From: Patescibacteria group bacterium UBA6017
Lineage (GTDB): Bacteria > Patescibacteriota > Saccharimonadia > UBA4664
Length of the DNA stretch: 64,000 nt
Assembly (NCBI GenBank): GCA_002429485.1
Contig: DIZX01000015.1
Coordinates: 256,197-320,196, forward strand
Reading direction: 5' to 3'
Shown here: piece by piece, positions 14,671 to 37,305 of the stretch
How positions within the stretch are numbered: position 1 is the first letter of the stretch
Layout of the letters: every line of letters begins with the position of its first letter
Translations under genes and position numbers: made by a program
The notes under the pieces: generated by a model
What the model was told of the DNA's origin: nothing
Seen by the model: only the letters and a program-made list of their open reading frames with translations
The model's database searches: none

Positions 14671-15838
14671 GATTCTCAATATAACAACTCAGCATGAAGT
14701 CTGCGGCATTGCGAAGTATCAGGAACAATATATGGAAGCCCTGAATGATCACGAGGGTATTAAGTCGGACCTATTTCCGTATTCTCCGAATATAACAAAG
14801 CTCATGTCTCGGGCCCAGTTCTCTGCGGTTCTTGCGGAATTTGAACAGCAGCTCCAAGATTACGATATTCTGCATCTACAGCATGAGTTTGCTTTTTATC
14901 GTGGCAATCAGCTTGGTCAGTATTTTGATGTCGCCAAGAAGCTTGGCAAAAAAATAGTAGTTACAATTCACACCTCGCCCGAGATTGTCCATTTGCCCGC
15001 CGTTAGCCCTCGGGGTGTCCGTAGCGGCCTACTATTTCTGAAAAATATTAGCGCAGAGCGTCATTTTGATCAAAGTTTCATATCGCCTATGCATCAAGCA
15101 GATCGTATTCTCGTTCATAATCTTCGGACTCATCACGTTCTGCTTGACCTCAAGCTATCCGCCGACAAGGTGAAGCTTATTGAGCTCCCCGTACCAATGC
15201 TAGGTCAAATCTCGCCATCGGCCCGGCTACACAAAGCGCTATCGGTAAAGTCAGGCGATGTCCTAATTGGTATAGTTGGCTTTGTTGCGAAAGTTAAAGG
15301 GGTAGATCATGCAGTTCGTGCGCTGAGCTTTTTGCCGGATAACTATAAATTAGCGATTATTGGAGGGATCCATCCTCAGAGCGCCGATATGGGTTATCTC
15401 GACTACGTGTGCGATATAGTCGTGCAACATGGGCTTCAAGACAGAGTTTATATTACAGGGTTTGTGCCCGAAAACGATGAGCTCAATAGGTTGATTCGGG
15501 AGTGCGATATATGCGTGTACCCATACGAGCAGCATTATTATGCCGGAGTATCGTCTGCGGCACTTGCCGATGCTTTTGCGAACCATAAGCCGGTAATTGC
15601 TTATCCCACGGCCGCTTTCCAAGAGCTAAACACGCATAATGAGGCGATGATTCTCTGTAAATCGTTCAATTATTATGAATTAGCCCGTGAACTCAAGGGC
15701 ATCAATATTGAGGCCGCCCGGAAAGCTTCAACGCTTTTTGCGGTCGGACATTCGTATCCAAAGGTGGCGCCAAAGGTCATATCTGCTTATGAGAATCTAC
15801 TTTCCGGTGTACGGCAACAGACCGATGCAAAGGATTAG
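14660..15838 (+). CDS. Glycosyltransferase (GT-B, GT4-like).
   Basis: YPYEQHYYAGVSSAALADAFANHKPVIAYPT. The N-terminal half is a Rossmann-like domain. Confidence 0.7.
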   Translation: MQIKILNITTQHEVCGIAKYQEQYMEALNDHEGIKSDLFPYSPNITKLMSRAQFSAVLAEFEQQLQDYDILHLQHEFAFYRGNQLGQYFDVAKKLGKKIVVTIHTSPEIVHLPAVSPRGVRSGLLFLKNISAERHFDQSFISPMHQADRILVHNLRTHHVLLDLKLSADKVKLIELPVPMLGQISPSARLHKALSVKSGDVLIGIVGFVAKVKGVDHAVRALSFLPDNYKLAIIGGIHPQSADMGYLDYVCDIVVQHGLQDRVYITGFVPENDELNRLIRECDICVYPYEQHYYAGVSSAALADAFANHKPVIAYPTAAFQELNTHNEAMILCKSFNYYELARELKGINIEAARKASTLFAVGHSYPKVAPKVISAYENLLSGVRQQTDAKD

Positions 15839-17042: not shown

Positions 17043-18346
17043 AGCGACCCCGCGTCTGGATTGATCTGAGCGATATCAGCACCTGGAAGGGTCATTACAC
17101 GGGCATTCAGCGCGTCGTAGTGAGTCTTAGCGGCCAATTTGCGGCCAGCGAGGAGGATGTGCGTTTCTTCGTTTACAACCAACGGCGCAACGAGTTCCTG
17201 CGCACTCAGCTATCTACTATTACACGCCCAGAAACCGACGACATGCCCGCCCCCGACCGGGCTAGCTCGCTAGGGGTCAGGCTAAAAGCTCTTATGCGCT
17301 GGACGTACGCCCATACTCCGACACGAATCCAGCGAGTTGTTCCGCCTGAACGCCGGAGGCAAATCCGAGCCGCTGGTGGCAAGATGATTAGCTCCCTACG
17401 GGCAAATGGGCGCTCCACAAGCCTTCCGACCGATGGGCCCGCCCAATTTGAGCGCGGAGACATTGTCCTCGTTCTCGGGGCAGCCTGGGAGCGGCCAGGC
17501 CTACTGCCCTCGCTAGCGAAACTCCGCCAAGACCATGGGATTAAACTGCATTGTTTAATTTACGATCTCATCCCCGTAATTCAGCCTCAATTTTTTGGTC
17601 CTGGGCTACCGGAGCGATATACCAAGTTCATGTTTGAGCTTGCGGCAAATTCCGACGGCATCATGGCCATCTCACAGTCCACCAGTCGCGATTTTGGGAC
17701 ATTTTGTACCTCTGTTGGGATAATAGCGCCGCCGGTTAGTGTCATACGGCTTGGCGATAATCCCGAGCTCCAGCCCGTGAAATCGGTACCAGTCGTAGGC
17801 ATCGAATCCGAAAGCTATATTCTTGCGGTTGGGTCTTTTGAAGCCAGGAAGAACTACGCCCTTCTGTACAGTGTCTGGAAGCAGGCCGCCCTCAACGGGC
17901 AAATCCTTCCTCGTTTGGTTATCGTTGGTTCTAAGGGCTGGGCAGCAGGGGATACGCTGGCAGCAATGCAGCTAGATCCGGACGTAGCAGAAGCTATCAC
18001 TGTTCTGGGAGGCATCAGTCGCGCTCGTCTGACCTGGCTGTATCAAAACGCGATGTTTACGATTTACCCTTCTACATACGAGGGCTGGGGGCTTCCGATA
18101 GCCGAGTCTCTTGCCTACGGTAAGCCATGTCTGGCCTCTAATACGTCGTCGATGCCGGAGGTCGGAGGGGATCTGGTGGATTACTTCAACCCCCTCGATC
18201 CGCAGGGTTGTCTCTTGGCTATCAAAGCCTATTTGGAGCCCGGCGCCTTAGCCGCTCATCACGAACGCATCCAGTCCGAATTCAAGACCACCTCTTGGGC
18301 CGCAACCCTCCAACAGGTTCAGCGCAATCTCGCGGGTGAAGAGTAA
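17039..18346 (+). CDS. Glycosyltransferase, family 4.
   Basis: YPSTYEGWGLPIAESLAYGKPCLASNTSSMPEVGG. The length and architecture match 13363..14670. Confidence 0.85.
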   Translation: MKRPRVWIDLSDISTWKGHYTGIQRVVVSLSGQFAASEEDVRFFVYNQRRNEFLRTQLSTITRPETDDMPAPDRASSLGVRLKALMRWTYAHTPTRIQRVVPPERRRQIRAAGGKMISSLRANGRSTSLPTDGPAQFERGDIVLVLGAAWERPGLLPSLAKLRQDHGIKLHCLIYDLIPVIQPQFFGPGLPERYTKFMFELAANSDGIMAISQSTSRDFGTFCTSVGIIAPPVSVIRLGDNPELQPVKSVPVVGIESESYILAVGSFEARKNYALLYSVWKQAALNGQILPRLVIVGSKGWAAGDTLAAMQLDPDVAEAITVLGGISRARLTWLYQNAMFTIYPSTYEGWGLPIAESLAYGKPCLASNTSSMPEVGGDLVDYFNPLDPQGCLLAIKAYLEPGALAAHHERIQSEFKTTSWAATLQQVQRNLAGEE

Positions 18347-18389
18347 CTCAGTCTGTGTTCCCGCAGCTCGATAGTAGCAAATAAAGATG

Positions 18390-20180
18390 TTACTGCAGGC
18401 TGAAAAGGGAAAATCGCATATCCTCATAAATCTTATGATGGACGGCCGCATCCACTTGGTTCGCAAGTTCCGGGTTGCTCGTAGACAGTTGCTTATCAAC
18501 TAGAATATAGCGTAGATTCAACGCTCTCATTTTAGCTACATCATCAGAGTGGAAGTCGGAAAAATCATTAATTTGAGAAAAATATTCAGGTGGGGTGTAG
18601 CCGCTGTAACCGTTAAAAATGTTCCGGTTATAGTAGCCCGACCACATCACCTCTTCGGCCCGGGCTACTGGAATCTGTGCGTTAGGGTAGTCGACGTCGG
18701 CCGAAATAATTACAATATTGTTCACTTCCGGGTGCGCCTTAATGTACTTGTAGACCGCCGGAATATTCAGATTGTAGTTGTATTCGTGGGTGCTCATGGC
18801 TACCTGGTGCTGTGGCAATAATTCAATCGCAACCAGCAAGCAAATGAGAGCGTATAGCCCTGTTCGAGCTTTGTTACCTATGTTCCATTGCTTAAGCACC
18901 CCAGGGAGAAAAGCTAACCCTATACATAGTGCTAATAGTACCAACCCGCTCGATCTTCCTACGGCGCGAATGAAGGACAGTTGAGGCAAGAATCTATCAA
19001 CGAGCAGGTAAGGCAACGGAATTGTGATCGGTATGCCGCCGCCTAATCCTGGATACATAAAGTTACCCCTGATCTTAAGCAGCGGGCCCAATGACACTAT
19101 AAACCCCGCCACGCCAATACCGAGGAATGTCATCGCCAACCCATACCTCCGCCAATTCGCCAGACTGCCACGCCGCCAGACGAATACCATCAATAATATT
19201 AGAGCAAAAACTAGATATAATGTTATGCCGTGGAATGACCGGCTATCGAGGTTATATGATTGCGCGTGAGGGTGGAAATGATAAAAAACTCCGCCCACAA
19301 TAGTAGATGGATCTGGTGTCAAATAATCCGCCAAACTCGAGGCATACTTCGTCTGATCCGCCACGCTGAAAGCCGCATGGTTGGCTTTAGAAAAACGTAC
19401 GTATTGAACCGCTAGTGGCATAGTCGTAGCAATAGCCAACGCAACTGCTGCTCCCAGCATAAGGATTTGTTTTGGTTTCGTAAGCCTAAACGCTATAAGT
19501 CCGAGTATTAGTACAGACATCGCCAATAACACGAACGCCATCTGGTACCAAGAGGCATAGAACTGAAGCACCAAAGATAGCCATAAAAAGACCAGCCACT
19601 TGATATTCTTTTTCTCTAGATACTTCAACACCATCAAGATTGCTAAAGGCAAGTAGAAAATACTAAGGCTCTGGAGGTGGGATACTGCCGCAATTTTAAA
19701 GGGGGCAAATTCAAACGCCAGGCCTGCTAACACGGAGACAACTTCATTCCCCCGGCTGATGTGCTTTACGAGCAGGTAGACGAACCAGCCGGATAGGAAA
19801 AAACTAATAACTGTCCAGATATTATAAGAAAACAGTGGGCTATTATTTATCCAGTATAAGGGCAGCGTGAGGAGGCCGGCTGAAAGCTGTGTTTCCGAAT
19901 ACAGCATAGTGTCTGGGTGGGGGTAGTATATATTTGAGTTAATGTATTGTGGGCAGCTTTGGGCCAGAATACAGTGCTGATCTCTCGCCAACGTCCAGGC
20001 ATTGAACATAGCATCGCCGCCCTCGCTATAAGAGGCTGCTCTGGTTATCATAGGCCAGAAAAATATTGCTGTGGCCGCCAATATTAGAAGTGTGCCTATC
20101 CAGTACCGGCGGATATATTTTCTGGGACTTGTTGCGTTCGCCCAAATCGTGGAGGCGACTTCGCTTAGCTTAGCCATCAT
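18390..20180 (-). CDS. Polytopic membrane glycosyltransferase-like protein (GT-C-like; polyprenyl-phosphate-sugar dependent). The family is uncertain.
   Basis: A 596-aa protein with more than 10 TM segments plus a C-terminal soluble domain. It is encoded directly downstream of a GtrB-like GT2 gene. Confidence 0.5.
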   Translation of the reverse strand: MMAKLSEVASTIWANATSPRKYIRRYWIGTLLILAATAIFFWPMITRAASYSEGGDAMFNAWTLARDQHCILAQSCPQYINSNIYYPHPDTMLYSETQLSAGLLTLPLYWINNSPLFSYNIWTVISFFLSGWFVYLLVKHISRGNEVVSVLAGLAFEFAPFKIAAVSHLQSLSIFYLPLAILMVLKYLEKKNIKWLVFLWLSLVLQFYASWYQMAFVLLAMSVLILGLIAFRLTKPKQILMLGAAVALAIATTMPLAVQYVRFSKANHAAFSVADQTKYASSLADYLTPDPSTIVGGVFYHFHPHAQSYNLDSRSFHGITLYLVFALILLMVFVWRRGSLANWRRYGLAMTFLGIGVAGFIVSLGPLLKIRGNFMYPGLGGGIPITIPLPYLLVDRFLPQLSFIRAVGRSSGLVLLALCIGLAFLPGVLKQWNIGNKARTGLYALICLLVAIELLPQHQVAMSTHEYNYNLNIPAVYKYIKAHPEVNNIVIISADVDYPNAQIPVARAEEVMWSGYYNRNIFNGYSGYTPPEYFSQINDFSDFHSDDVAKMRALNLRYILVDKQLSTSNPELANQVDAAVHHKIYEDMRFSLFSLQ

Positions 20181-20186
20181 TTAAGC

Positions 20187-20909
20187 CTAATACTTAGTGA
20201 GCAAGTTAAAACGAATAATTTCCCAAATAGCCTTAATGCCGTCACTTACACCGATCTTCTTGCCCTCTTCCTTGCTCCGGCCATAGTAGCTAATCCCTAT
20301 CTCGTAAACGGCCGCTTTGCTCTTGGCAATCCGAGCCGTGATCTCGGGCTCAAAACCGAATCGCTGCGCCTTAAGATCTTGTGCCAGTCGACGCGCCAAG
20401 TCGCCTCGCATCATTTTGTAGCAAGTCTCCATATCGGTGAGGTTGAGACCAGTCAGCGCATTCGAAAGAAAAGTCAGGAACTTATTTGCAACTTGGTTGC
20501 GGTAGTAAATAATCCTGTGTGGTTGTCCGCCAATAAACCTTGATCCGTAGACAACATCAGCTTGTCCGCGCTCGATCGGGTATAGGAGGCGTTTATATTC
20601 CTGGGGATCATACTCTAGGTCGGCATCTTGAACTACCACGACGTCGCCCGTAGTCTCGAGGATGCCACGCTTAAGAGCCGCCCCCTTACCCTGGTTGCGG
20701 TCTTGCAGTAGCACGCGGATAGTTTGGCTATTCGCAGCCAACTTCGACAGGATCCCTCTTGTGCCATCCGTGGAATAGTCGTCCACGATTACGATTTCTT
20801 TTTTGGTTGCCCCCAGGTCAACGGCAGCAACCTCTTTAAGAATCTTTTCGATCGTCGCCCGCTCATTGTAGCAAGGGATCACGATGGATAAGGTGTCGAT
20901 TTTTGCCAT
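20187..20909 (-). CDS. GT2 polyprenyl-phosphate glycosyltransferase (GtrB/DPM1/ArnC-like).
   Basis: [10 protein letters not shown]... and [15 protein letters not shown] (DxD region) match this family. The length is ~240 aa. Confidence 0.85.
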
Positions 20910-20932
20910 CATGCCTCAATGTCATTATACTG

Positions 20933-21397
20933 ATGGTTATGTTATCACAGTCGACGGTGGGTCGCACTCACTACATCTTGCGGCGACTTCTTAAGATCGA
21001 CTTCGTTCGCTTCAGCCTTGTTGGTGGTTGTGGGTTTGTCATAAATCTTTCCATACTTATGCTGCTATATAGGGGCGTTCACGTCTCAATTTTTCTGGCT
21101 CAATTGATCGGGTCCGAGATTGCACTATTTTTCAATTTCATCTTGCACCACAAATGGACTTATAAACACCGGAACATCGTTAGCTCGATACCGACCCTGC
21201 TGGTGCAATTTCACGCCAGCTCTTGGGCGGCTACGTTGGGCAGTGCCGCGTTGGTAGGCGCTCAAGTAAAGTACCTTCACCTAAATTACGTTGTAGCCCT
21301 GGTCGCCAGTTCCGCCGTTGTGCTGTTCTGGAACTACACTTGGGCAAGGTCGGTAATCTGGCGGCATCATCTCGATACCGACCGGGAACCGGCATGA
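20933..21397 (+). CDS. GtrA-family small membrane protein (putative flippase component).
   Basis: A ~150-aa protein with 4 TM segments. FVRFSLVGGCGFVINLSILMLLY is GtrA-like. The gene is divergent from the GT2 gene, and its stop overlaps the ugd start (ATGA). The start could instead be 20903 or 20939. Confidence 0.6.
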   Translation: MVMLSQSTVGRTHYILRRLLKIDFVRFSLVGGCGFVINLSILMLLYRGVHVSIFLAQLIGSEIALFFNFILHHKWTYKHRNIVSSIPTLLVQFHASSWAATLGSAALVGAQVKYLHLNYVVALVASSAVVLFWNYTWARSVIWRHHLDTDREPA

Positions 21398-22707
21398 AGA
21401 TAGTCGTTATTGGTACGGGTTATGTTGGCTTAGTCTCGGGTACCTGCTTCGCCGAAGAAGGGAATACCGTTATCTGTGTTGATATCGACGAAGATAAGGT
21501 TAGCCGGATGCAGAACGGCCAGATGCCTATATACGAACCGGGTCTCGAGGTTCTATTCCATCGAAATATCCAGGAGCAGCGGCTCAGTTTCACTACTAAC
21601 CTCAAGGCTGGTATCCAAGGTGCTGAAATTATTTTTCTTGCGCTTCCGACACCGCCCGGTTCGGATGGCTCGGCCGACCTGTCATACGTGCTTGGCATGG
21701 CCGAAGAGCTTGGCCCGATGCTGGAAGAGTATGTAGTGATAGTGGATAAAAGCACAGTACCGGTTGGCACTGCGGAAAAAGTTAGGGCCAAAATCGCTGC
21801 CAGCAGCAAAGTAGACTTTGACGTTGTTTCAAACCCTGAGTTCCTTAGAGAAGGCTTTGCCGTGGCCGACTTTATGCGGCCGGATCGTATTGTTGTTGGG
21901 AGCTCGTCGGAGCGAGCGGACAAACTTATGGAGCGGCTGTATCTCCCATTCGTCCGGACAGGCAACCCGATCCTATTTATGAGCGAACGCTCTGCCGAAA
22001 TGACTAAGTACGCCGCCAATGCAATTCTCGCTACGAGGTTAAGCTTCATGAACGAAATCGCCAACATGTGCGAATATGTTGGGGCAGACGTTGATTCCGT
22101 TCGGCTTGGGGTGGGCCATGACCCTCGTATAGGCAAACGTTTCCTCTTTCCAGGAATCGGCTACGGAGGCAGCTGTTTCCCCAAGGATGTCGCGGCGCTC
22201 AAATATATGGGAGGCCAGGAGGGTTACCATTTTCGTGTGCTTGAAGCTGTTGAGCAGGTTAATGAGTACCAAAAAACCCGGCTGTTTGAAAAGATTACTA
22301 GGCACTACAAAGGGGACCTCCGGGACCGGGTATTCGCGCTGTGGGGTCTCTCTTTCAAGCCCGACACGGACGATATTCGGGAGGCACCTTCTTTGGCTAT
22401 TATTGAGCAACTTACCTCGGCTGGTGCCAAGGTAGTCGGTTATGATCCGGTTGCAATCCCCAACGTCAAGAGACAACGGGGGGACAACCCGAATCTCAGT
22501 TTTTCCTCTAACCCCTACGATGCCCTAGGTGGGGCTGATGCCCTCCTTATTGCTACCGAATGGGGTGAATTTAAGACCCCCGACTTCAGGAAGATTAAAC
22601 AATATTTAAAAAAGCCAGTCATTTTTGATGGCCGCAATGTGTTTAGTCTCGACGAAATGAAAGAACAGGGGTTTAAGTACTATAGTATCGGTCGGCCGGT
22701 CGTTTAG
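21394..22707 (+). CDS. ugd: UDP-glucose 6-dehydrogenase.
   Basis: ORF 21223..22707. The true start is MKIVVIGTGYVGLVSGTCFAEEGN at 21394. The catalytic GGSCFPKD is present. Confidence 0.95.
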   Translation: MKIVVIGTGYVGLVSGTCFAEEGNTVICVDIDEDKVSRMQNGQMPIYEPGLEVLFHRNIQEQRLSFTTNLKAGIQGAEIIFLALPTPPGSDGSADLSYVLGMAEELGPMLEEYVVIVDKSTVPVGTAEKVRAKIAASSKVDFDVVSNPEFLREGFAVADFMRPDRIVVGSSSERADKLMERLYLPFVRTGNPILFMSERSAEMTKYAANAILATRLSFMNEIANMCEYVGADVDSVRLGVGHDPRIGKRFLFPGIGYGGSCFPKDVAALKYMGGQEGYHFRVLEAVEQVNEYQKTRLFEKITRHYKGDLRDRVFALWGLSFKPDTDDIREAPSLAIIEQLTSAGAKVVGYDPVAIPNVKRQRGDNPNLSFSSNPYDALGGADALLIATEWGEFKTPDFRKIKQYLKKPVIFDGRNVFSLDEMKEQGFKYYSIGRPVV

Positions 22708-22734
22708 GTGGTGCTAATTAAGAAGGAGCAAATT

Positions 22735-23694
22735 ATGGGCAAGCGAGTGATGGTTACGGGTGGTGCCGGGTTTGTTGGTTCGCATCTGTGTGAGCGCCTG
22801 CTGGTCGACGGGCATGAGGTACTCTGCGTCGACAACTTTTATACGGGGCGTCGCCAAAATATTTATGAGATGCTTGAACATCGGAATTTTGAATTATTAC
22901 GGCACGATATCACTGTGCCTCTCTCAGTAGAAGTGGATCAGATCTACAATCTGGCTTGCCCCGCCTCGCCAGTACACTATCAATTTGACCCTGTCCAGAC
23001 CACCAAGACCAGCGTCCTGGGTGCCATCAATATGCTTGGCTTAGCTAAGCGAGTAAAGGCCAGTGTACTCCAAGCATCTACCAGTGAAGTCTATGGAGAC
23101 CCGGACGTCCACCCACAACCCGAAAGTTATTGGGGTAATGTGAACCCCGTTGGTATTCGGTCATGCTATGACGAGGGTAAGCGTTGCGCCGAGACGCTTT
23201 TCTTTGATTATCACAGGCAGTCAAATGTAGATATTCGGGTCGTGAGAATATTCAACACGTATGGGCCCAAAATGCTTCCAAATGACGGTCGCGTAGTCTC
23301 AAACTTTATTGTCCAGGCATTAACAAATCAGGATATCACTATTTATGGTGACGGCTCACAAACAAGGAGCTTTCAGTATGTTGACGACCTAGTAGAGGGG
23401 ATGGTTAAAATGATGAATAACACTCGTCAGCTTATAGGCCCAGTAAATTTGGGCAATCCGAACGAGTTTACGATAAAAGAATTGGCCAATGCGATATTAA
23501 AGCAGATACCAGAGAGTACGAGTAAGATAATCTTCAAAGAACTACCCCAAGATGATCCTCGGCAACGTCAACCCAACATTGATCTAGCCCGTAAGGAGCT
23601 TGATTGGGAGCCAAATATCCAGTTGCAGGCAGGGCTCAGCCGCACTATCGATTATTTCCGGTTGGTAATGAAGGTCAAAAATTACACTAAGTAG
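22735..23694 (+). CDS. uxs: UDP-glucuronate decarboxylase (UDP-xylose synthase).
   Basis: [40 protein letters not shown]. An AAGGAG Shine-Dalgarno sequence lies upstream of the 22735 start. Confidence 0.9.
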
Positions 23695-23784
23695 TCGCGG
23701 GTTGGCATTGATATCTCCAGATGTAGCGTAGCCACAGTATCAACTTTAGTCATGCTAAAATGCTTATATTAGATAGGGGCCACA

Positions 23785-24315
23785 ATGCCGAGATTGCCAA
23801 AGAAGCGAATAATCCTCTCCTGCGCAGTATTGGCTGTTGTGGCCATTTGCATAGGCGCTTATGCGTACAATCTAGATAGGCGATTGGCCATCGTTCCGAC
23901 CAGCGCAACCCCATCGGCTAGCCAAACCCCCGGAGCAGACACCGCAACCCACGCTGGCCCGGGTTCCGACATCGCGGCGTCCCCCAAGGTCGAACCTACG
24001 CCCTCTACAGCCAAGGTGCAGCAACCTACCGGTCAACTCCTGAACACTCATTCCGTCAGCCTCAGCTCGGGGATAACCAGTATAGATTCTACCTGCAACT
24101 CAGTGTCTGGGGCCACCTGCGCCATCCGGGCCACTCGGGGCGCTGAGACCATCACGGTCGGTACGGCAACTACCTTGTCTGATGGCTCAAATGGTCTTGA
24201 AATAATCTGGGATGCCAAGAAACTCAGTAAAGGAACCTGGATTATCCGTGCGGTTGCTAGTAAAGGTTCTCAAGAGGCACAATCGGACCCTGACAGTCTG
24301 GTGGTTGTTGAATGA
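23785..24315 (+). CDS. Membrane-anchored Ser/Thr/Pro-rich protein of unknown function.
   Basis: An N-terminal TM segment (ILSCAVLAVVAICIGAYAY) is followed by a low-complexity linker and a small C-terminal domain. The stop overlaps the next gene (ATGA). Confidence 0.5.
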   Translation: MPRLPKKRIILSCAVLAVVAICIGAYAYNLDRRLAIVPTSATPSASQTPGADTATHAGPGSDIAASPKVEPTPSTAKVQQPTGQLLNTHSVSLSSGITSIDSTCNSVSGATCAIRATRGAETITVGTATTLSDGSNGLEIIWDAKKLSKGTWIIRAVASKGSQEAQSDPDSLVVVE

Positions 24316-27233
24316 CTAAATCGTTACGTGTTTCGGCCCTTGTGCTCTTAGTAGCTACGGTTTCAATTGCAGCTTTTATTGTCCCTGCACATGCCACCGA
24401 CTATAATAACTCCCGTCTCATGGACGACCAGATCTTCGATAACAACGCGAGCATGAATGAGTCTCAGATTCAATCCTTTTTGAGTGCTCGTGGGTCTTGT
24501 CTTGCAAGTTATAACGACGTGGACCCAACCTGGACCGGCTCAACTTGGACATACGGCGGAAGCGCCTCAGCCGCCCACACCATCTACAAGGTCTCTCAAC
24601 AATGGGGGCTGAATCCGCAGGTAATCATTGCGACACTCCAGAAAGAGCAGAGCCTGATAACTGGCGCGGGTTGTGTTGCTCCACAAATAATCTCTGCGAT
24701 GGGGTATGATTGCCCAGATTCAAATGGCCGGTATGACTATCCCGCTATCGGAGTTACCCAAACCTGTGTTTCCCATCAGAAGAATGCGGGCTTCGCCAGG
24801 CAAGTGCTTTGGGGTTCATGGCAATTAAAGTTCAATAAAGAGCGTGCCTATGGCAATACCAGCTGGGACGGCGATGGTAGCCTTATTTACGGTGGGTACA
24901 TGACAGCCGGAGTTCGCAAGCGGTGTGATACTTGCCAGTCATTCTCCTACGACGGCAATACATCTATCGACGGGCAGGCTCTCCATATCGACAACGGCAC
25001 GACCGCCTCGCTCTACTACTACACTCCTCACCTCGGACAGTCTTTCCCCGGGATATTCGAGGGTTGGTTTGGCTCAACTCTTGTTCCCACATATGCCTCT
25101 CAGTTCGCTGGTGTGTCGGCTTACCCTACAATCGTCCCAGGCACCTCTGTAACGGTCACATTGAGCTATCAAAATGTCGGGAACCTAGCTTGGTACGACG
25201 ACGTTAGTGCGCAATCCGCGGGCCAGTTGCCGACCCACCTCGCCACCAGTCACGCCTTAAATAGGACTAGCCCATTTGTCCTGGGTGGGGGCCAAAATCG
25301 CCCTGCCCTAACTTTTGCTGCCGTGTATATGAGTGATGGGACCACGCTAGCTTCAAACCAGCACGTAGCGCAATCGAGTCAGATTGTTAAATTCTCATTA
25401 GTTCTCGTGGCCGACCGGTCGTTGCCGGCAGGGCAATACCGGGAGTATTTCCAGCCGATCATCGAGGGGGGGAGCGTAATGAATGATCCCGGCACTTTCG
25501 TGGATGTAAATGTACCCGACCTTGACGCTTCGTCAGCGGCCGGTCAATCTGGCTATCCTACTTTAAAACCCGCACAGGGGGCTGCCGCCTTCTTAACCTA
25601 TCGCAACGCCGGCAACACTCGGTGGTGCGACGATATTGCTATGGCACAGGCTTCGTCTGGGTGTCATCGCGTTCATTTGGCAACGTCTCATGCCATCAAT
25701 CGTGCCAGCGCCATAGGCTCCGAATGGGGTCCAGGTAAAAACCGCCCCGCCCTAACCTTTGCCGCCGTTTATTTGGGGGATAATATCACTCCAGCGCCAG
25801 ACCAACATGTCGCTTTGCCTGGGCAGTTTATTAAATTCACCTTCAATTTCGTTGTGCCAGAAAACCAGGCGCCCTCAACCTCGCAAGAGTACTTCCAGCC
25901 AATAGTCGAGGGTGGAGCCACCATGAACGACCCTGGAACCTTTCTAAATGTCACAATATCATCAGCGTCAACTTCTGTAGCAGTTAGTGCCCCCGCTCAG
26001 CAATTTGTTGCGGGCGAGACCAAGACGCCCTCCCTCTCCTTCAGGAATACGGGCAACGTCGCCTGGTCGAATGCTAATACCAAACTTTTGGCAGTCAATG
26101 ACTCTAGCAAGGTTTTCAAAAACATCAGCTGGGCTAGCCCTACGATAGCCGCTAGCATGAACGAGTCAAGCGTGGCTCCGGGAGGCACCGCTACCTTCAG
26201 CCCCTCTCTGACTGCGCCAGTAGGAGCCGGGAGCTATACTCTTAATTTTGCCCCCGGTGAGCAGAATGTAGCGTACGACGGCCCCAAGGCCTCAATGGGT
26301 GCGACCGTCTCTGGTGCTATATACTCTTCACTTTATGCTGGCGAGTCAGGGTATCCTCAGATTCGCCAGGGCCAGTCTGCAACTGCCTGGATTCGTTATA
26401 AGAACACGGGCAATATTGCCTGGTACGACGATACCAATGCTTCCACTGGCCCCGCTGGCGTCAAGCCAAGTCACCTCGCAACGAGTCACGAACTCAATCG
26501 TAGTAGCGTCCTAGGTAACGTCTGGGGAGGAGATAATAACCGCCCCTCAGGCAGCCCTTCCGCTGTCTACGAAAGTGACGGGACTACTCTTGCGGCTAAC
26601 CAGCATCTCATTCAGCCTGGCCAAATTGCCCAATATCGTTTCATTTTGAGCGCTCCGTTCGGCCTTGCCACGGGCATAAGACGTGAATATTACCAGCCGA
26701 TCGTAGAGGGCGGAACCACCATGAACGACCCCGGGACTTTCCTAGACGTCGAAGTATTGCCTGGCACGTATTCTAGCCAGTACTACTCGCAGTCTGGCTA
26801 CCCCAGCATAGCTCGACCCGCGAGCGGGTCTGCAACAGCCGCCGCCTACATAAGCTACAAGAATACCGGTAACACTCCCTGGTATGACTCTTCCAGTGTG
26901 ACGCCCGGCAATTTGCCCACCAACTTAGCCACTAGCCACTCCGTCAACCGAGCCAGTGGTTTGGCTGACGTATCGCCCAGCGGCTGGTGTAATAGCAGCT
27001 CCCGCAATCGCGCCGCGTGCCAGTTCGCTGCCGTATACGAAAGCGATGGTATCACTCCTGCCGCCAGCCAGCATGTAGCCCAGCCCGGCCAAATCGTGAA
27101 ATTTGCTTTCAGCTTCTCTGCCACCCCCACCACTCCGCTAGGAACCACGCGCGAGTTCTTCCAGCCCATCATCGAGGGCGCCACTACTATGAATGACCCG
27201 TGGACCTCCCTCGAAGTTACTATCACGCCTTAG
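24312..27233 (+). CDS. Large secreted repeat protein (973 aa). A signal peptide and a ~260-aa N-terminal domain are followed by five tandem ~135-aa repeats.
   Basis: The signal peptide is MTKSLRVSALVLLVATVSIAAFIVPAHA. The repeats share a (S/A)GYP ... Y-N-GN-x-W-DD ... LATSH-x-NR-S ... NRPA ... FAAVY-SDG-T ... QPGQI ... REYFQPI-EGG-x-MNDPGTF core. The third repeat is divergent. Confidence 0.75.
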   Translation: MTKSLRVSALVLLVATVSIAAFIVPAHATDYNNSRLMDDQIFDNNASMNESQIQSFLSARGSCLASYNDVDPTWTGSTWTYGGSASAAHTIYKVSQQWGLNPQVIIATLQKEQSLITGAGCVAPQIISAMGYDCPDSNGRYDYPAIGVTQTCVSHQKNAGFARQVLWGSWQLKFNKERAYGNTSWDGDGSLIYGGYMTAGVRKRCDTCQSFSYDGNTSIDGQALHIDNGTTASLYYYTPHLGQSFPGIFEGWFGSTLVPTYASQFAGVSAYPTIVPGTSVTVTLSYQNVGNLAWYDDVSAQSAGQLPTHLATSHALNRTSPFVLGGGQNRPALTFAAVYMSDGTTLASNQHVAQSSQIVKFSLVLVADRSLPAGQYREYFQPIIEGGSVMNDPGTFVDVNVPDLDASSAAGQSGYPTLKPAQGAAAFLTYRNAGNTRWCDDIAMAQASSGCHRVHLATSHAINRASAIGSEWGPGKNRPALTFAAVYLGDNITPAPDQHVALPGQFIKFTFNFVVPENQAPSTSQEYFQPIVEGGATMNDPGTFLNVTISSASTSVAVSAPAQQFVAGETKTPSLSFRNTGNVAWSNANTKLLAVNDSSKVFKNISWASPTIAASMNESSVAPGGTATFSPSLTAPVGAGSYTLNFAPGEQNVAYDGPKASMGATVSGAIYSSLYAGESGYPQIRQGQSATAWIRYKNTGNIAWYDDTNASTGPAGVKPSHLATSHELNRSSVLGNVWGGDNNRPSGSPSAVYESDGTTLAANQHLIQPGQIAQYRFILSAPFGLATGIRREYYQPIVEGGTTMNDPGTFLDVEVLPGTYSSQYYSQSGYPSIARPASGSATAAAYISYKNTGNTPWYDSSSVTPGNLPTNLATSHSVNRASGLADVSPSGWCNSSSRNRAACQFAAVYESDGITPAASQHVAQPGQIVKFAFSFSATPTTPLGTTREFFQPIIEGATTMNDPWTSLEVTITP
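25101..27230 (+). repeat. Five tandem ~400-nt coding repeats inside gene 24312..27233.
   Basis: Approximate units are 25101..25511, 25542..25955, 25989..26306 (divergent), 26337..26753 and 26787..27230, with conserved W/Y/NDPGTF positions. These are protein-level repeats, not CRISPR. Confidence 0.7.
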
Positions 27234-27276
27234 CTTAGGGCGACTATATCCGCAGAAGGGCTTCGGCCGACTCTTG

Positions 27277-28563
27277 TCAGAGCATCCCCTCAAAACGAAC
27301 CTTGATAGCAGATCCAGTTTTGGCGTAGCCAGATAAAAGTTTTTTGATAAGTTTCAGTGGGGTAGCCATTGCTATTAAACCCGGCGCCTGTGCGCCCGTT
27401 AGAGCCCAGTTAGCCACCTGAGCCGAAATGCTTATTGCGGCACGGTCAACATAAATTTCAAAATAGTGAGCGCCAAGTAGGGTCAGGCTCAGGTATGCGA
27501 GTACTGTGATAGCGACACTAGGCGTGTATCCGAAGTGAGGGATAAGGGAAGAGAAGATATAGGTAGAAAGGCCCATAAGGGTAATTTGGTGTAGCAAATA
27601 TAGGCTGAATGATTTTTGCCCCAGATAAACCAACGGCCGCCAGCTAAGCCATTTTTGAACACGCGGTAGTCCAAGGATTGCAACCAGCACAAAAAATGCC
27701 GCAAGGTTATGCCAAAAAAACGTGTTCTCAACCACACTCCACCCTTGAACAAACAACAACTGGTATGTCGTCTGTGCCGGGTTTCCATATGTTGTGTAGC
27801 CTCCTAGGAGTATGCCGGTTGCCAGTAGCCCCCAACCACATCTTCGGATCTGACGAGCCAAGTCAGCACGCCGATCTGCTGTTGCCAGTAAATCGGCCAG
27901 CAGCATACCGACGACAAATCCCAGGTATTCCGTTCTCAGCACCGCAGCAACCAGTGCTAGGTAAATAACCCAGCGTAGCCTGTTCTGCCCAAATAGGGCG
28001 GTTATAGCAAATACCAGAAAAGAACCAAATAACTCTATTTGCATAGTCCAAAGAACGGGGTTGTATATTCCGGAGCCGGAAACGAATGTGCCGAAAAGCC
28101 CCTCGTAAATCGCCTTGCCTATTGAAGGCTCGAACTGAAAATAGTTTGCTGGGCTATGTGTAATGAGCTGGACCCCTGCCCAGTTTTGAAACAGACCAAG
28201 CTTCATTAGTAAGTATGCCAATATAACTGAAACTAGCACTGGTATTGCCAGACGAAGATACCTTTTGGACGCGGCTCGCTCTAGTGACTTCGGGTCACGC
28301 CGTTTAAAAAAAATCCGAGCAAGAACGTACCCGCTCAAGGTGAAGAATATTGCCACTGCGAAATTACCACTTACTAGTACGCCGAGCGGTGAGGTATAAA
28401 ATAAATGCGCGAATCGCGAGTGTGTCGCAATGGGCGGCCCGACAACCATTGCGGGGAAGTAAACCGACGCGGTGTGAAAAAGCACCACCATAAGAGCTGC
28501 TAGCCCCCGCAGACTCTCCAGATATAATAACTTCGCTTTTGGCTCACCGGTATCTTCCATCAT
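27277..28563 (-). CDS. Acyltransferase family 3 membrane protein (O-acyl/acetyltransferase).
   Basis: MMEDTGEPKAKLLYLESLRGLAALMVVLFHT followed by ~10 TM segments. Confidence 0.85.
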   Translation of the reverse strand: MMEDTGEPKAKLLYLESLRGLAALMVVLFHTASVYFPAMVVGPPIATHSRFAHLFYTSPLGVLVSGNFAVAIFFTLSGYVLARIFFKRRDPKSLERAASKRYLRLAIPVLVSVILAYLLMKLGLFQNWAGVQLITHSPANYFQFEPSIGKAIYEGLFGTFVSGSGIYNPVLWTMQIELFGSFLVFAITALFGQNRLRWVIYLALVAAVLRTEYLGFVVGMLLADLLATADRRADLARQIRRCGWGLLATGILLGGYTTYGNPAQTTYQLLFVQGWSVVENTFFWHNLAAFFVLVAILGLPRVQKWLSWRPLVYLGQKSFSLYLLHQITLMGLSTYIFSSLIPHFGYTPSVAITVLAYLSLTLLGAHYFEIYVDRAAISISAQVANWALTGAQAPGLIAMATPLKLIKKLLSGYAKTGSAIKVRFEGML

Positions 28564-28622
28564 AACTATTATAAGGCATAAGCTTTCAATCCTTTACACT
28601 TACGCTATGATTCGCATGGAGT

Positions 28623-29834
28623 TTATGGCGCGGGCGCGGGTTCGTAGGCTGAGCGGCTCGACACCCTACGGCGCGGTAGCCGAGCGCGCAAAAAAAGGCT
28701 AGCCGGTGCCTCAAACAGTCGAAAGCTCAGCCAGGCGATGATGAGTGTTGTGACGAAGGTTAGGAGTGTAAATACGGGCGCTGATCGTTGGCCTAGCAGC
28801 TTTAACAGTAAAAAAATCACTAGGGGATGAAGCAAATACATCCCATAGCATAGCGCCCCCGGCAGCGTGAGAAATTGAGGCATTCGATTTGCCCACGGAC
28901 GAGTCCTCGCCACGGTTAAAATTCCGGCTATCGCGAGGCTAAGAAGAGTTGGAGCATAAACACGAGTCAGCGGAAGCTGGGCCAAGCTCAAACCCCAAAA
29001 AACGCAAAACGCCAACACTGCGAACCCTAGAGCCATGCCCAGGGCAGTTTTCCTCCCGAGATTCCGAATCCTAGGATTCGTGCTCGCCAAGAACGCCATA
29101 ACCCCAAATGCTATGCTCTCAAAGCCACTCGGGGAGCCACTAAAACCGAGCCAAAAATTCGTCGGGGCCACGAGTGAAGTTGTTAGCCGGTACAAAATGC
29201 CGATTCCGACAACGAGAGCCATAACGCGCACCAGACGAGCCGCGGAACCCCCGAAGCGCCGCAATATAAATGGGTATAACAGGTAAAACTGTTCCTCAAT
29301 CGCCAACGACCAAAATATGTCCCACTGCAGGCCCCACCCGCTCGCAATGCTCTGGTACGCGATCCGGACCCAATTGAACGCAAATAATGGCAGAGAGACG
29401 AAAAACCAGCCACTGAATTGGGCTTGGGGGTCCCGCAGGACGAAGTCGCGCGCTATGCCTGGGTGAGTTAAGTGAGCGAGCACCGCTGCCGTTAGAACCA
29501 CCACCATCGCAAGTGGCAGTAAGCGAGCCACCCGGCGTCCATAGAAGTCTAGGCTTGAGACAGCTGACAAGTTAGGACTACGAATGGATATTGTCTTAGT
29601 AATAATGAAACCGGACACAACAAAAAATATTGTCACGCCGTAAGCGGAGTTTCCTTCGAGCCGCCCCTGTAGCCAGCCTGGCCAGCCAGCCATGGCGAAT
29701 GAAACAGTAGCGCTATGACCAAATACCACAATCGCAATACTTATAGAACGCAGCAGATCTACGACCGCAAAACGTGACGTCGGTTTGGGTAGCATTAAAG
29801 CTCTCGGCTCACCAGTCTCTTCCATCATAACCAT
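28623..29834 (-). CDS. Acyltransferase family 3 membrane protein, a tandem paralogue of 27277..28563.
   Basis: MVMMEETGEPRA...LLRSISIAIVVFGHS. The 5' flank is nearly identical to that of the downstream paralogue. Confidence 0.85.
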   Translation of the reverse strand: MVMMEETGEPRALMLPKPTSRFAVVDLLRSISIAIVVFGHSATVSFAMAGWPGWLQGRLEGNSAYGVTIFFVVSGFIITKTISIRSPNLSAVSSLDFYGRRVARLLPLAMVVVLTAAVLAHLTHPGIARDFVLRDPQAQFSGWFFVSLPLFAFNWVRIAYQSIASGWGLQWDIFWSLAIEEQFYLLYPFILRRFGGSAARLVRVMALVVGIGILYRLTTSLVAPTNFWLGFSGSPSGFESIAFGVMAFLASTNPRIRNLGRKTALGMALGFAVLAFCVFWGLSLAQLPLTRVYAPTLLSLAIAGILTVARTRPWANRMPQFLTLPGALCYGMYLLHPLVIFLLLKLLGQRSAPVFTLLTFVTTLIIAWLSFRLFEAPASLFLRARLPRRRVSSRSAYEPAPAP

Positions 29835-29906
29835 TATAAGGCACCCGCCTCGAAATTTGGTATAATCGCATCGAACTCGGCTCGTTTAATTGACGGGCGC
29901 CCAAGA

Positions 29907-30362
29907 GTGGGCTACTTGAGCAAATTAAGGAGACGTAAGGTTATGAGCGAAAATACACTGCCAGGGCCAGATCGTGACCAGCCAGAGGCCGGCTTCAGCA
30001 ATGCCGCCGAGGCCAGAGACTTGGCGAACGATCCCGAGGTTGAAGCAATTAGCCCCGAATTAGACCCAGAGGCCATCGGCCTGCGCCTCGAAAATGAAGA
30101 CGATCGCCGCAGCATATACACCATTGATGATGTCGACCTCTTTCTGGGTGAACAGTCACCCGTTCCGGGAGGCCTTAAGCGTAAGGTTCGGGAATTATTT
30201 GCCACCTATCCCGATGGTCTCAAGCAGTTTTTCGTTAAAAAGAATCAAGATGACGCCGTGCTGGCCAAGCATCATCATACCGAGGTAGAAACTGGAGGCT
30301 CGGGGGTCGAAACATTTCTATTTACCGACATCCCAGCGGGATCATCGGTTACTACCGAGTAA
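29907..30362 (+). CDS. Hypothetical acidic protein.
   Basis: A 151-aa ORF (possible start MSENTL at 29943) with no recognisable motif. Confidence 0.3.
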   Translation: MGYLSKLRRRKVMSENTLPGPDRDQPEAGFSNAAEARDLANDPEVEAISPELDPEAIGLRLENEDDRRSIYTIDDVDLFLGEQSPVPGGLKRKVRELFATYPDGLKQFFVKKNQDDAVLAKHHHTEVETGGSGVETFLFTDIPAGSSVTTE

Positions 30363-30683
30363 TACGATCTGGGCCGTGCACAGGGGCGCATTCAGTCAGA
30401 CGTTCCTATCGGAACCGAAATGCGCAACCTTCCCGAGACTTATCATGTCATTAATATCCACGGTCCGGCTAGCTTTGTGCAAATGCTGGAGAGCCCCGAT
30501 TTTCATTCTGAAGATCTCATTGCATATGATAGGGATAATTGGTCGAAGGAAGACGGACGCATGGTCGAGGGCACCCTACCTTGGCCTAAGGAAAAGCCCG
30601 ATTCGCCAGAGGCTGCTTAAACCGGTTGCTGAGGCAGCCCCTTTGGTGAAGCGCAACCGAGACAAATCTGATATACTTTCGCC

Positions 30684-31718
30684 ATGATTATTGTGATTAT
30701 CGCTGGCGGATCGGGAACTCGGCTCTGGCCCTTGTCTGTTGGTAACTACCCCAAACACCTACTAAAACTAACCGGTGAGCGCTCGGGAGTCCAAGAGGCC
30801 TATGATCGTGCCAAGCGCATTAGTGACGACATCTATGTGGTCACCGAAGCCAGCCACTCTGAGCATGTGAAAAAGCAATTGCCCGACCTGCCCGACCACG
30901 CTTTCATCGTGGAACCCGGCCGCCGCGGGACTGCTAGCTGTTTTATTGCCGCTCTCGACCGCGTAGCGCGTCATCACGACCTCGACGAGCCGATTGGCTT
31001 CCTGTGGGCCGATCACTTCATCCGCGACATTGACGGCTTCGTGCACGCCTTCAAGACCGCCGAAGCCCAATCCAAGCACCACGGCCGCCTCACCCTAGTC
31101 GGTATTGAGCCGACGCACCCGTCCACCCTATTTGGGTACATTGAAAAAGGCGCCATTATCGACAAAGCCGCCTTCGTGTCCGAAGTCGCCAGCTTCAAAG
31201 AAAAACCCGAGCTCGAGCAGGCACGGGAATTCTTTGCCAGCGGCAAATACCTCTGGAACAGCGGCTACAACGTTGGCTCCGTCAACGTCTTCTTGTCGGC
31301 CATGAAGAAGCACGCTCCCGAGCGCTACGCGGACTTCCAAAGTCTCCAAAAGGTCAAAACCCCCGCCGAATACGATGAAACCTACCTCGGCTTCGAAAAC
31401 GACGCCATCGACTACGCTCTCAGCGAAAAAGTCGACAACCTCATGGTGGTGCCCGCCACCTTCGATTGGCTAGATGTGGGCTCATTCAAGGAATTGTATG
31501 AAGCCAACAATAACGATGGTTCCGGCAACGTGATCACCGGCGACGGGGTAGTGGAGACCATCGAAGTCGAGAACTCCTACATCCGCAACGACGGCGACAA
31601 GCCGATCGCGGTCATTGGCCTCGACAACGTAGTGGTGGTCAACACCCCCAACGGCATCCTGGTCGCTCGCAAAGACCTCTCCCAGCGCGTCAAAGAGATC
31701 GTCAAGAAACTCGCTTAG
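30684..31718 (+). CDS. manC: Mannose-1-phosphate guanylyltransferase (nucleotidyltransferase domain only, no PMI cupin).
   Basis: MIIVIIAGGSGTRLWPLSVGNYPKHLLKL. A TATACT hexamer 6 nt before the ATG suggests a leaderless transcript. Confidence 0.9.
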   Translation: MIIVIIAGGSGTRLWPLSVGNYPKHLLKLTGERSGVQEAYDRAKRISDDIYVVTEASHSEHVKKQLPDLPDHAFIVEPGRRGTASCFIAALDRVARHHDLDEPIGFLWADHFIRDIDGFVHAFKTAEAQSKHHGRLTLVGIEPTHPSTLFGYIEKGAIIDKAAFVSEVASFKEKPELEQAREFFASGKYLWNSGYNVGSVNVFLSAMKKHAPERYADFQSLQKVKTPAEYDETYLGFENDAIDYALSEKVDNLMVVPATFDWLDVGSFKELYEANNNDGSGNVITGDGVVETIEVENSYIRNDGDKPIAVIGLDNVVVVNTPNGILVARKDLSQRVKEIVKKLA

Positions 31719-31757
31719 TAGACGACCACCGTCTGGTTGCTCACCCTAGGGACAACC
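31717..31757 (-). pseudogene. Relic 3'-terminal gene fragment homologous to the C-terminus of gene 33753..35597.
   Basis: Minus-strand reading gives ...LKAPIQVVPRVSNQTVVVY*, against ...MANMNVVPGVSNQTVVVY* at the real gene end. The nucleotide repeat is ~30 of 38 identical. Confidence 0.5.
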
Positions 31758-31775
31758 TGAATTGGCGCTTTCAAC

Positions 31776-31813
31776 AAAAGATAGGGGTGTTTTCGCAAAC
31801 ACCCCTATCTTTT
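31776..31813. terminator. Bidirectional intrinsic terminator hairpin.
   Basis: A perfect 17-bp stem AAAAGATAGGGGTGTTT / AAACACCCCTATCTTTT with loop tcgc. The A/U runs on both sides are part of the stem. Confidence 0.6.
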
Positions 31814-31949
31814 ACGATTCGAGCTCAGAATTAAGGTATTTGCTTCCTTATATTATATATCCTATATATCGGGCACATCTGGAATTCTTGTCAGTTTTCA
31901 GGTGTAAGCTATAGTTTAAGCACAAGCACTATAAATTTCTCGAGGATAC

Positions 31950-33731
31950 ATGGAATCAGAAGCACCAACCACCGATAATCAGGCTCAGCCCGTTCCCGAA
32001 GCGCCCGTCGCCGCTCCAGTCACCGCGCCCGTTGAACCTCCAGCCCAGCGACCGCACAACAAAAAGCCCCTTGTGATCACCCTTGGCGTATTGATCCTTG
32101 CCGGCATCGGCGGCGGACTCTATTGGCAATTTGGCCGCACCCAACCCGCTAAGGTTACTTCGATCCAGGCCAGCCCGTCCGTTACCCCCGTCCCGTCGTC
32201 CACTCCCGATTCTAAAGCCACTCTATTGCTCCAGCGTTTCACTAAGCCGACGACCGGCGAGACCTGGCTCCCGGCCCCCAAGAAGCTGGCCGCTCAAGGT
32301 TTCCTCAAAGACGGCGATACCGATGCCGAGTACTACCAGCTCGGTATGCGCGGCACTTCAACTATCATCTTGTCGGTCGTTTCGCAGGTTGGTGAATGGA
32401 ATATTCTCTACGAGAAGACCGCTGCTGGTAACGTCACGGTCATTGCTCATCCGGACGGCGAGGCGGTTTACAATGCCGACTCAGATACCCAGTACGCCAG
32501 CGCCGTATCGTCGAAAGTTAAGCTCGATACCGTCACGCACTATGATTCGCTCACCATGCCACTCGAGCTCCCACTCGCTAAGGGCTACGTCGTGAAGAAG
32601 CCGACTCATCCCGATTTCGGCAGCCTCATCCGCCCGGTAGTTGCCGGCCAGATCGTCCCCGTCGACACCGTCGTGGCCAAATACGGGGGGAGCACCCTGG
32701 TAAAAACCGAGACGACTTACGCGGACACCAAGCTAACTTCCATCGGCTACAACATGCTGACCGCGGCTCATATGCGCGTCGCCATGTCGTTCATGCCCCT
32801 GGAACTCAGCCTCACTGGCTATCAATGGCAAAGCGGTGCCACGCCCGTGGATACCATTTCGCCCATCAACCGCGGTTGCAGCCTCTCTACCATCTCCGCG
32901 AGCCGTTCCGACGTGCTGACCGCTGCCGACGTCCAGGTGATTGGTAAATCCCCGTCAGGCGTTACGGTCTACGAGCTCAAATCGCTCGATAACCCGCTCA
33001 TGACGAAAGCCTACCAGGAGTTTATCGACTTCTATAAGGGCACCGATGCCAACTCGACACCCTACTTCAATATCACCAAGGCCAAGTTTGCCACCGAGCA
33101 CGGCGTCATCGTTATCAAAGATAATTACGGCCAGTGGCTCGTCTACGCTCGCGATCAGCTCCGACCAATGGGTGGCTGCGCCAAGCCGGTCATTTACCTC
33201 TACCCGCAACAGGCCGAGCAAGTCTCGGTTCGGGTCGGTGCTAGGGTTAAAGTTTCTCTGCCCACCTATGATCCCTTCAAAGGCTGGAATGTCTGGGCGA
33301 CACCGAGCGGGTCCTTGAGCGTAGCAGGTGCTCCGTACGACTCACTCTTTTGGGAGGGTCCCGGCCTTGGCGCCTACCCGGGGATAACCTCCGGTACCGT
33401 GGTGGCCCGGAGTCGGGCCGCCGGTACTATCCGGCAGCAACTTGCCCAACAGGGCCTCGTGGGCCGCGAGATTGACGATTTTATGGCCTACTGGGAGCCC
33501 AAGCTGCCAAATAAACCGTATGTGAGGCTCACTTGGTTTAATACTGGGCAGATGAATGTTCTGGCCCCGTTGGCCATCTCGCCCAAGCCAACTACCGTCC
33601 TGCGCGTCTTCCTCGACTTCGACGGACTCGACTCGCCGATTAATCTTCCGGCCCAACACCTGACCTCGACCCCGCGCCAAGGCTTTACCGTTGTGGAATG
33701 GGGCGGTTTAGCCAACTTTCCTCTCAAATAG
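31950..33731 (+). CDS. Membrane-anchored extracytoplasmic protein of unknown function.
   Basis: A Pro/Ala-rich N-terminal tail is followed by one TM segment (LVITLGVLILAGIGGGLYWQF) and a ~520-aa external domain. Confidence 0.6.
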   Translation: MESEAPTTDNQAQPVPEAPVAAPVTAPVEPPAQRPHNKKPLVITLGVLILAGIGGGLYWQFGRTQPAKVTSIQASPSVTPVPSSTPDSKATLLLQRFTKPTTGETWLPAPKKLAAQGFLKDGDTDAEYYQLGMRGTSTIILSVVSQVGEWNILYEKTAAGNVTVIAHPDGEAVYNADSDTQYASAVSSKVKLDTVTHYDSLTMPLELPLAKGYVVKKPTHPDFGSLIRPVVAGQIVPVDTVVAKYGGSTLVKTETTYADTKLTSIGYNMLTAAHMRVAMSFMPLELSLTGYQWQSGATPVDTISPINRGCSLSTISASRSDVLTAADVQVIGKSPSGVTVYELKSLDNPLMTKAYQEFIDFYKGTDANSTPYFNITKAKFATEHGVIVIKDNYGQWLVYARDQLRPMGGCAKPVIYLYPQQAEQVSVRVGARVKVSLPTYDPFKGWNVWATPSGSLSVAGAPYDSLFWEGPGLGAYPGITSGTVVARSRAAGTIRQQLAQQGLVGREIDDFMAYWEPKLPNKPYVRLTWFNTGQMNVLAPLAISPKPTTVLRVFLDFDGLDSPINLPAQHLTSTPRQGFTVVEWGGLANFPLK

Positions 33732-33752
33732 CGCTAAGAAGTCCTATATCCG

Positions 33753-37243: not shown

Positions 37244-37305
37244 CTCATTACTCCCTTTTCTTGATTGTACACTCACCCCGCGGCTACGTCCGCCCCATCC
37301 CGCCG

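Follow-up and report, generated by a model that had tools for sequence, protein, structure and literature searches.

The subject of this analysis is a gene in a 64,000-nucleotide stretch of DNA from the Patescibacteria bacterium UBA6017, a member of the Saccharimonadia (contig DIZX01000015.1); this whole stretch is called the window in the following, and all positions refer to it. The open reading frame at 24312..27233 on the forward strand probably encodes a secreted modular wall hydrolase with five copies of a known immunoglobulin (Ig)-like domain type. Modular wall hydrolases as such are a known kind of protein. The novelty lies in the lysozyme-like catalytic family, which was uncatalogued, in the membrane-anchored partner conserved with it, and in the placement in surface-glycan loci of Saccharibacteria as well as of their host phylum.

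The open reading frame starts with ATG and encodes 973 amino acids (aa) plus a stop codon. A Sec-type signal peptide (aa 1-28, 24312..24395), called solely by inspection of the sequence, ends in AHA, with MTKSLRVSALVLLVATVSIAAFIVPAHA before the predicted cleavage site and TD behind it, and homologues align across this N-terminus. It is followed by the putative catalytic domain (aa 29-262, 24396..25097) and by five tandem Ig-like modules, R1 to R5, which together account for about 73% of the protein. Neither an LPXTG motif nor a C-terminal membrane anchor is present in the 973-aa protein. The open reading frame, the signal peptide and the module alignments agree with an earlier note on this DNA, which had described a secreted, modular protein of this length with five tandem modules. 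A metagenome protein from JGI (P0001) is 100% identical and was called 36 aa shorter, with 937 aa. Its public gene call begins at Met37, by which the signal peptide is lost (24312..24419 in the window), and the homologues back the ATG at 24312.

The putative catalytic N-terminal domain

Structure modelling assigned a lysozyme-like fold to the N-terminal domain of about 235 aa, and the nearest structural matches of the model were peptidoglycan enzymes. Glu112 (codon 24645..24647, within TLQKEQSL) was invariant in alignment A1, and glutamate was found in 97% of 354 domains. Asp38, Asp39, Asp136 and a Y-x-Y-T-P motif were also conserved across the 354 domains, and the list of conserved features further names Cys134-Pro-Asp136, Gln164 and the longer motif T-A-x-L-Y-x-Y-T-P. 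For the putative catalytic glutamate and the surrounding motifs, conservation amounted to 90-100% across these domains. In the model, helix 74-85 has Glu112 at its C-terminal end. Because this position is usual for the catalytic glutamate of lysozyme-like enzymes, we propose that Glu112 may be the catalytic acid. The earlier note had suspected a hydrolase and had pointed out a QKEQS segment; this segment comprises aa 109-113 and includes Glu112, and the suspicion is supported by the lysozyme-like fold together with the conserved glutamate.

Pfam, NCBIfam and PHROGs contained no family for the N-terminal domain, with the Pfam scan of the window's domain extended to E = 10. The Glucosaminidase family (PF01832) was matched neither by the window's domain to E = 10, nor by 27 family members to E = 1, nor in NCBIfam. 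Weak, sub-threshold matches to SLT_4 (E 0.0088) were obtained for 2 of the 27 family members in a Pfam scan to E = 1. A comparison of the domain profile with the sequences of solved structures found nothing. The family is large, with 5,178 clusters (50% identity) at E <= 1e-3 and 2,946 at E <= 1e-30. In every naming source its proteins are labelled hypothetical or named after a C-terminal domain, and a literature search found no description of this enzyme family in Saccharibacteria. We class the N-terminal domain as a branch of the lysozyme-like superfamily that had not been catalogued before. Such proteins are 'hypothetical' in genomes of Saccharibacteria and Microbacteriaceae, and the lysozyme-like assignment gives a testable function to many envelope genes of actinobacteria and of Candidate Phyla Radiation (CPR) bacteria. 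An origin as a prophage lysin or from a plasmid is unlikely, as a tblastn search with the domain against phage and plasmid collections gave no match. Three to four tandem copies of the lysozyme-like domain were seen in P0241, P0242 and P0243, among proteins of 824-1116 aa.

The whole protein yielded 353 matches; an organism name is attached to few of these, and nearly always it points to Saccharimonadia. The catalytic domain was found in Saccharibacteria, in a few other CPR lineages and in Actinomycetota (Microbacteriaceae, Cellulomonas, Oerskovia, Sanguibacter), as judged from 80 related loci, which are the best tblastn matches and not a random sample. In other lineages, the C-terminal modules are LGFP repeats, bulb-type lectin domains, DUF5648, FG-GAP/VCBS and, once, CHAP. 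By analogy, a constant catalytic domain with a swapped carbohydrate- or wall-binding tail would correspond to the usual build of autolysins. The long repeats, in turn, were found behind an Amidase_2 domain in five proteins (P0026, P0051, P0052, P0058, P0073) and behind a subtilase in two (P0081, P0087). A common C-terminal module on several wall-active enzymes fits what a shared wall-targeting module would look like.

Five Ig-like modules of the FW type

The module boundaries were placed at aa 262, 406, 554, 673 and 820. Four of the modules are long: R1 (aa 262-405, 25095..25526), R2 (aa 406-553, 25527..25970), R4 (aa 673-819, 26328..26768) and R5 (aa 820-973, 26769..27230), the last of which reaches the end of the protein. 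R1, R2 and R5 scored 188, 192 and 177 bits, respectively, against the hidden Markov model of the long repeat. The long copies have 144-154 aa, more than the approximately 135 aa given in the earlier note, and are 46-55% identical to one another over their full length (BLASTP E 1e-41 to 1e-52), a similarity far outside what chance would give. R3 (aa 554-672, 25971..26327) has 119 aa and matched the long copies weakly (E 8e-5 to 3e-4), in line with the previous description of the third copy as divergent and shorter. In each of the four long copies, the motif set that had been ascribed to every repeat was found in unchanged order, with LATSH at aa 310, 456, 722 and 872, MNDP at aa 390, 538, 804 and 960, and GYP at aa 414, 680 and 829 (R1 has SAYP instead); R3 lacks LATSH, NRPA and FAAVY-SDG. 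The module order long-long-short-long-long is retained in 46 homologues, with partial position-specific orthology, which argues that the array is old.

R3 was the sole copy recognised by Pfam. It matched N_BRCA1_IG (PF16158) with 34.4 bits and E 3.6e-8 in the scan of the whole protein and with 27.3 bits when scanned alone, the gathering score of the family being 28 bits. R1, R2, R4 and R5, scanned singly, gave no Pfam match at all, with E = 10 as the limit. The 266 long copies collected from homologues were combined into a profile (A2), which aligned with a profile of the short middle copies (96.7%, E 3e-10) and with a profile of classical repeats of about 120 aa, A4 (hhalign 99.8%, E 1.8e-30; local run 99.9%, E 8.6e-32). 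PF16158 was matched by 23 of the 25 classical repeats in A4, and A4 found human NBR1 (4ole) by sequence with E 2.4e-4. The structure model of R4, the copy chosen for this purpose, is an Ig-like sandwich whose nearest solved folds are the FW domains of ILRUN and NBR1; the long copy thus has, in the model, the FW fold as known from these two proteins. According to the alignments, the long form is the classical form extended by two insertions, one of about 8 aa after W-Y-D and one of about 14 aa, F-x-x-V-Y-x-S-D-G-x-T-L-A. The Pfam model is blind to the long copies because these insertions hide them. The four-tryptophan signature of the eukaryotic FW domain was not retained in the long-copy consensus: W32, after N-T-G-N, is near-invariant and a tryptophan at about position 65 is in the majority, and elsewhere other residues are found, for example the M of MNDP. 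The classical bacterial copies retain three tryptophans (W33, W61, W113).

On the strength of these profile comparisons, the repeat belongs to the bacterial FW / N_BRCA1_IG Ig-like domain as an expanded subfamily and is not a new domain. The earlier note, going by the motifs, had considered the repeat family undescribed, with a confident match to a known Pfam family named as counter-evidence. This view did not hold, as R3 passes the PF16158 cut-off, the homology of A2 and A4 reaches 99.8%, and the model is nearest to ILRUN and NBR1. In substance, the repeat maps to the known family by way of R3 and the A2-A4 profiles, although no long copy alone matches Pfam. The supposed new fold is thereby removed, and in its place stands an expanded FW subfamily that the PF16158 model misses as a whole. 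The previous suggestion of beta-sandwich modules was supported by the structure model; the S-layer-like role that had been suggested along with it is unlikely in view of the putatively enzymatic N-terminal domain. A relationship of the repeat with the C-terminal carbohydrate-binding module of Wzt (PF14524) was also considered. A lone, weak match of 44 residues to 5hno (E 0.04) was treated as chance, and hhalign of A2 with the window's own Wzt_C domain gave 0.1%, which does not support homology.

The partner gene and the surface-glycan locus

The gene directly upstream (23785..24315, forward strand) encodes a protein of 176 aa, and its stop codon overlaps the start codon of the enzyme gene. The four-base ATGA overlap, noticed earlier, can be read directly from the sequence (...GTT GAA TGA and ATG ACT AAA). 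The partner protein consists of an N-terminal membrane anchor, a linker rich in Ser, Thr and Pro, and a beta-rich C-terminal domain of about 90 aa with two conserved cysteines, in accordance with its earlier characterization as membrane-anchored and Ser/Thr-rich. In about 35 related loci, some of them from Actinomycetota, the enzyme gene is likewise immediately preceded by a gene of the partner type. The Ig-like family Gmad2 was matched by 6 of 38 partner members (best E 2.4e-5); a comparison of the partner profile with solved structures gave matches through the membrane anchor and the linker alone. In the Actinomycetota Oerskovia and Agromyces, the partner starts with a lipobox-like sequence (...AVGGC and ...MAAC; L075:9357-9881 and L077:9441-9890), and, judging from this sequence, it is probably a lipoprotein rather than anchored by a membrane helix. 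The 64 kb window contains no further copies of the repeat, the N-terminal domain or the partner.

The association with wzm and wzt, for which the earlier note had recommended a check, recurs. Of the 42 loci with full flanks, 23 had both genes at a distance of at most 10 kb: 13 of 18 from Actinomycetota and 10 of 24 from CPR bacteria. By our estimate, which is not a computed control, only a few percent of random genes in such genomes would be this near to wzm/wzt. Two related Saccharimonadia contigs carry, in this order, ManC, a small membrane protein, the lysozyme-like enzyme with FW repeats, and an overlapping amidase or subtilase gene with the same repeats, followed by a Wzx-type glycan locus. 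The conserved position of the enzyme beside glycan loci and a membrane-anchored partner, in epibionts as well as in the host phylum, hints that wall hydrolysis and wall glycopolymers are linked. Such a link could have a bearing on the way in which Saccharibacteria construct Gram-positive envelopes or break through them.

In the window, wzm, wzt with its Wzt_C domain, six genes for glycosyltransferases of family 4 (GT4), an FkbM-type methyltransferase gene and ManC are distributed over 7559..18346 and 30684..31718. By analogy, this set resembles the pathway of capped polymannose O-antigens with an ATP-binding cassette (ABC) transporter, as in E. coli O8/O9a, and it points to a CPR bacterium with a surface glycan that is mannose-rich and methyl-capped. 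The locus also contains a gene for UDP-glucose dehydrogenase (UGD), followed by one for a UXS-like decarboxylase of the short-chain dehydrogenase type (21394..23694). As read from the sequences, UDP-glucuronate would come from this pair and probably UDP-xylose as well, a sugar donor that few bacteria use, with the UXS assignment being a family resemblance only. A GT2 gene (20187..20912, reverse strand), a GtrA-like gene (20903..21397, forward strand) and a gene for a polytopic membrane protein of 596 aa with no Pfam match (18390..20180, reverse strand) look like a three-part glycosylation system of the Gtr type that acts outside the membrane (18390..21397). The GT2, GtrA, UGD and UXS-like genes occur together in two other loci (L021 and L041), and the 596-aa membrane protein is found in L041, too.

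Directly downstream of the enzyme gene, two divergent membrane acyltransferases of the Acyl_transf_3 family are encoded (27277..29834), which may O-acylate the glycan or peptidoglycan, possibly modulating the substrate of the enzyme. Further genes nearby encode an acidic protein of 151 aa (29907..30362) and a protein of 593 aa that is membrane-anchored at its N-terminus and starts with a Pro/Ala-rich stretch (31950..33731), both with no Pfam match. The G+C content is about 0.48-0.54 over the glycan locus (8000..32000) and 0.54-0.63, mostly 0.56-0.62, at 32000..50000, a step that is often seen at exchangeable surface-polysaccharide loci.

Proposed function and comparison with known systems

With moderate confidence, we read the gene product as a secreted peptidoglycan glycosidase with a membrane-tethered partner, in which the FW-type arm would hold or target the enzyme on the wall, possibly via the neighbouring glycopolymer. 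After Sec export, the N-terminal domain would cleave a beta-linked wall glycan, the likeliest substrate being the peptidoglycan backbone, with Glu112 as the presumed catalytic acid. The five FW / N_BRCA1_IG modules would serve as an arm for targeting and retention that has no covalent anchor to the wall. They would probably bind the wall or the surface glycopolymer of the adjoining locus, as the wall-binding repeats of Gram-positive autolysins do. The enzyme would be co-translated with its Ig-like, membrane-tethered partner and is probably positioned or held back by it.

Several points weigh against this proposal. The N-terminal domain has about 11% identity with any lysozyme-like enzyme of known structure and can be superposed over only about 133 of its 234 residues, and Foldseek with the catalytic domain returned nothing significant. 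The second carboxylate and the YATD motif of glycoside hydrolase family 73 (GH73) were not identified in the family. The fold does not fix the substrate because it is shared by chitinases, chitosanases and a GH124 cellulase. The ligands of FW domains that are known from experiment, all in eukaryotes, are proteins (PMC3357945, PMC9233695), and we purely infer the wall or glycan binding of the bacterial repeats. Lastly, the related loci were selected as best matches.

The breadth of the fold, which also serves chitinases and the GH124 cellulase, leads to an alternative that we regard as rather unlikely: the lysozyme-like domain might trim, release or remodel the locus's own surface polysaccharide, like BcsZ, PslG or AlgL, while the repeats hold the same polymer. 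The gene does lie within glycan loci of two export types, Wzm/Wzt and Wzx-type, often beside ManC, and bulb lectin domains of the mannose type occur in some family members. However, the nearest structural matches are peptidoglycan enzymes, the repeats recur among the operon partners on a peptidoglycan amidase or a protease, and one family member is fused to CHAP. In addition, the catalytic domain remains about 30% identical between phyla while the sets of glycosyltransferases vary. Because the catalytic domain is conserved while the neighbouring glycosyltransferases differ, an invariant substrate such as peptidoglycan fits better.

Cultivated Saccharibacteria live on Actinomycetota (PMC10633639), and the catalytic family, as seen in the 80 loci, has no members outside these two groups and a few further lineages of the CPR. 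Both facts would suit a weapon or adhesin directed against the host, with repeats that grip the actinomycetal surface and a lysozyme-like domain that opens the host wall. In Southlakia epibionticum, transposon sequencing (Tn-seq) reported essential envelope proteins with glycan-binding domains, and with VCBS (SEML1_0891) and FN3 domains (PMC10633639). Fusions of the lysozyme-like domain to VCBS/FG-GAP were observed in P0121, P0130 and P0162; SEML1_0891 is a possible member of the family. We nevertheless consider a host-directed function quite unlikely. Free-living Actinomycetota have the same enzyme, with the same upstream partner in 5 of 23 cases and usually beside wzm/wzt, and this presence in free-living bacteria argues for a role in the producer's own envelope. 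Moreover, no immunity-like or secretion-system genes lie nearby in the window, and no relatives were found on phages or plasmids. Least probable is a structural surface-layer or stalk protein with a functional Ig-like array and an inactive, lectin-like remnant at its N-terminus: the large share of the five modules in the protein and their retained order in the 46 homologues would agree with it, but the glutamate and its surrounding motifs are conserved as expected of an active enzyme, and the same repeats occur on an amidase and on a subtilase.

The preferred reading of a peptidoglycan glycosidase can be extended to a joint one, which is speculative and which we hold to be rather doubtful. The partner and the enzyme, often together with an amidase or protease that bears the same repeats, might form a glycopolymer-coupled system of wall remodelling. 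In such a system, the variable arm (FW, lectin, LGFP, DUF5648, VCBS) would read a strain-specific glycan, and the partner would be a membrane-bound regulator or inhibitor. The system would be shared, and perhaps exchanged, between Saccharibacteria and their actinomycetal hosts, so that the epibiont could recognise or open host walls.

Among known enzymes, those of GH73 (LytB of S. pneumoniae, Acp of C. perfringens, Atl/AtlA) are comparable in their lysozyme-like core with a glutamate that ends a helix, a fold that the modelled domain shares, and in being secreted modular enzymes with repeated non-catalytic modules for wall targeting. In LytB, choline-binding repeats attach to teichoic acid. 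Unlike GH73 enzymes, the new family does not match the Glucosaminidase model, superposes over about 57% of the domain, and has motifs of its own (K-E-x-S-L, G-x-x-C-P-D and L-Y-x-Y-T-P). The acidic residues conserved besides Glu112 are Asp38, Asp39 and Asp136. The GH23/SLT lytic transglycosylases and the goose-type lysozymes are similar in having a single, strongly conserved glutamate, to which the weak SLT_4 matches can be added. In contrast to them, the family stays below the threshold of every SLT model, and its domain is larger, with an additional beta-rich lobe (strands 172-197 of the model). Their motifs E-S, G-L-M-Q and A-Y-N-x-G were not matched; the family has E-(Q/S/N)-S-L instead of E-S, and its motifs are K-E-x-S-L, M-G-Y-G-C-P-D and L-Y-x-Y-T-P.

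The repeats share with FW domains (PF16158; NBR1 4OLE, ILRUN 6VHI) the Ig-like beta-sandwich, the strand motif N-x-G-N-x-x-W and a second half with P-G-x-x-x-x-F ... G-x-Y-x-E-x-F. They differ in the two insertions, in an L-A-T-S-H-x-x-N-R-x-S loop and in their length of 144-154 aa, compared with about 100-120 aa in classical members. The long copies form extracellular tandem arrays, whereas the eukaryotic domains are single, cytosolic and protein-binding. Lastly, choline-binding repeats, CWB2, SLH and LGFP differ from the present modules in that the fold here is Ig-like of the FW type and that wall polymer binding here is our inference. The likeness to these systems consists in one repeat type being placed on several secreted, wall-active enzymes of one organism, and in genes that lie beside a locus for a secondary wall polymer.

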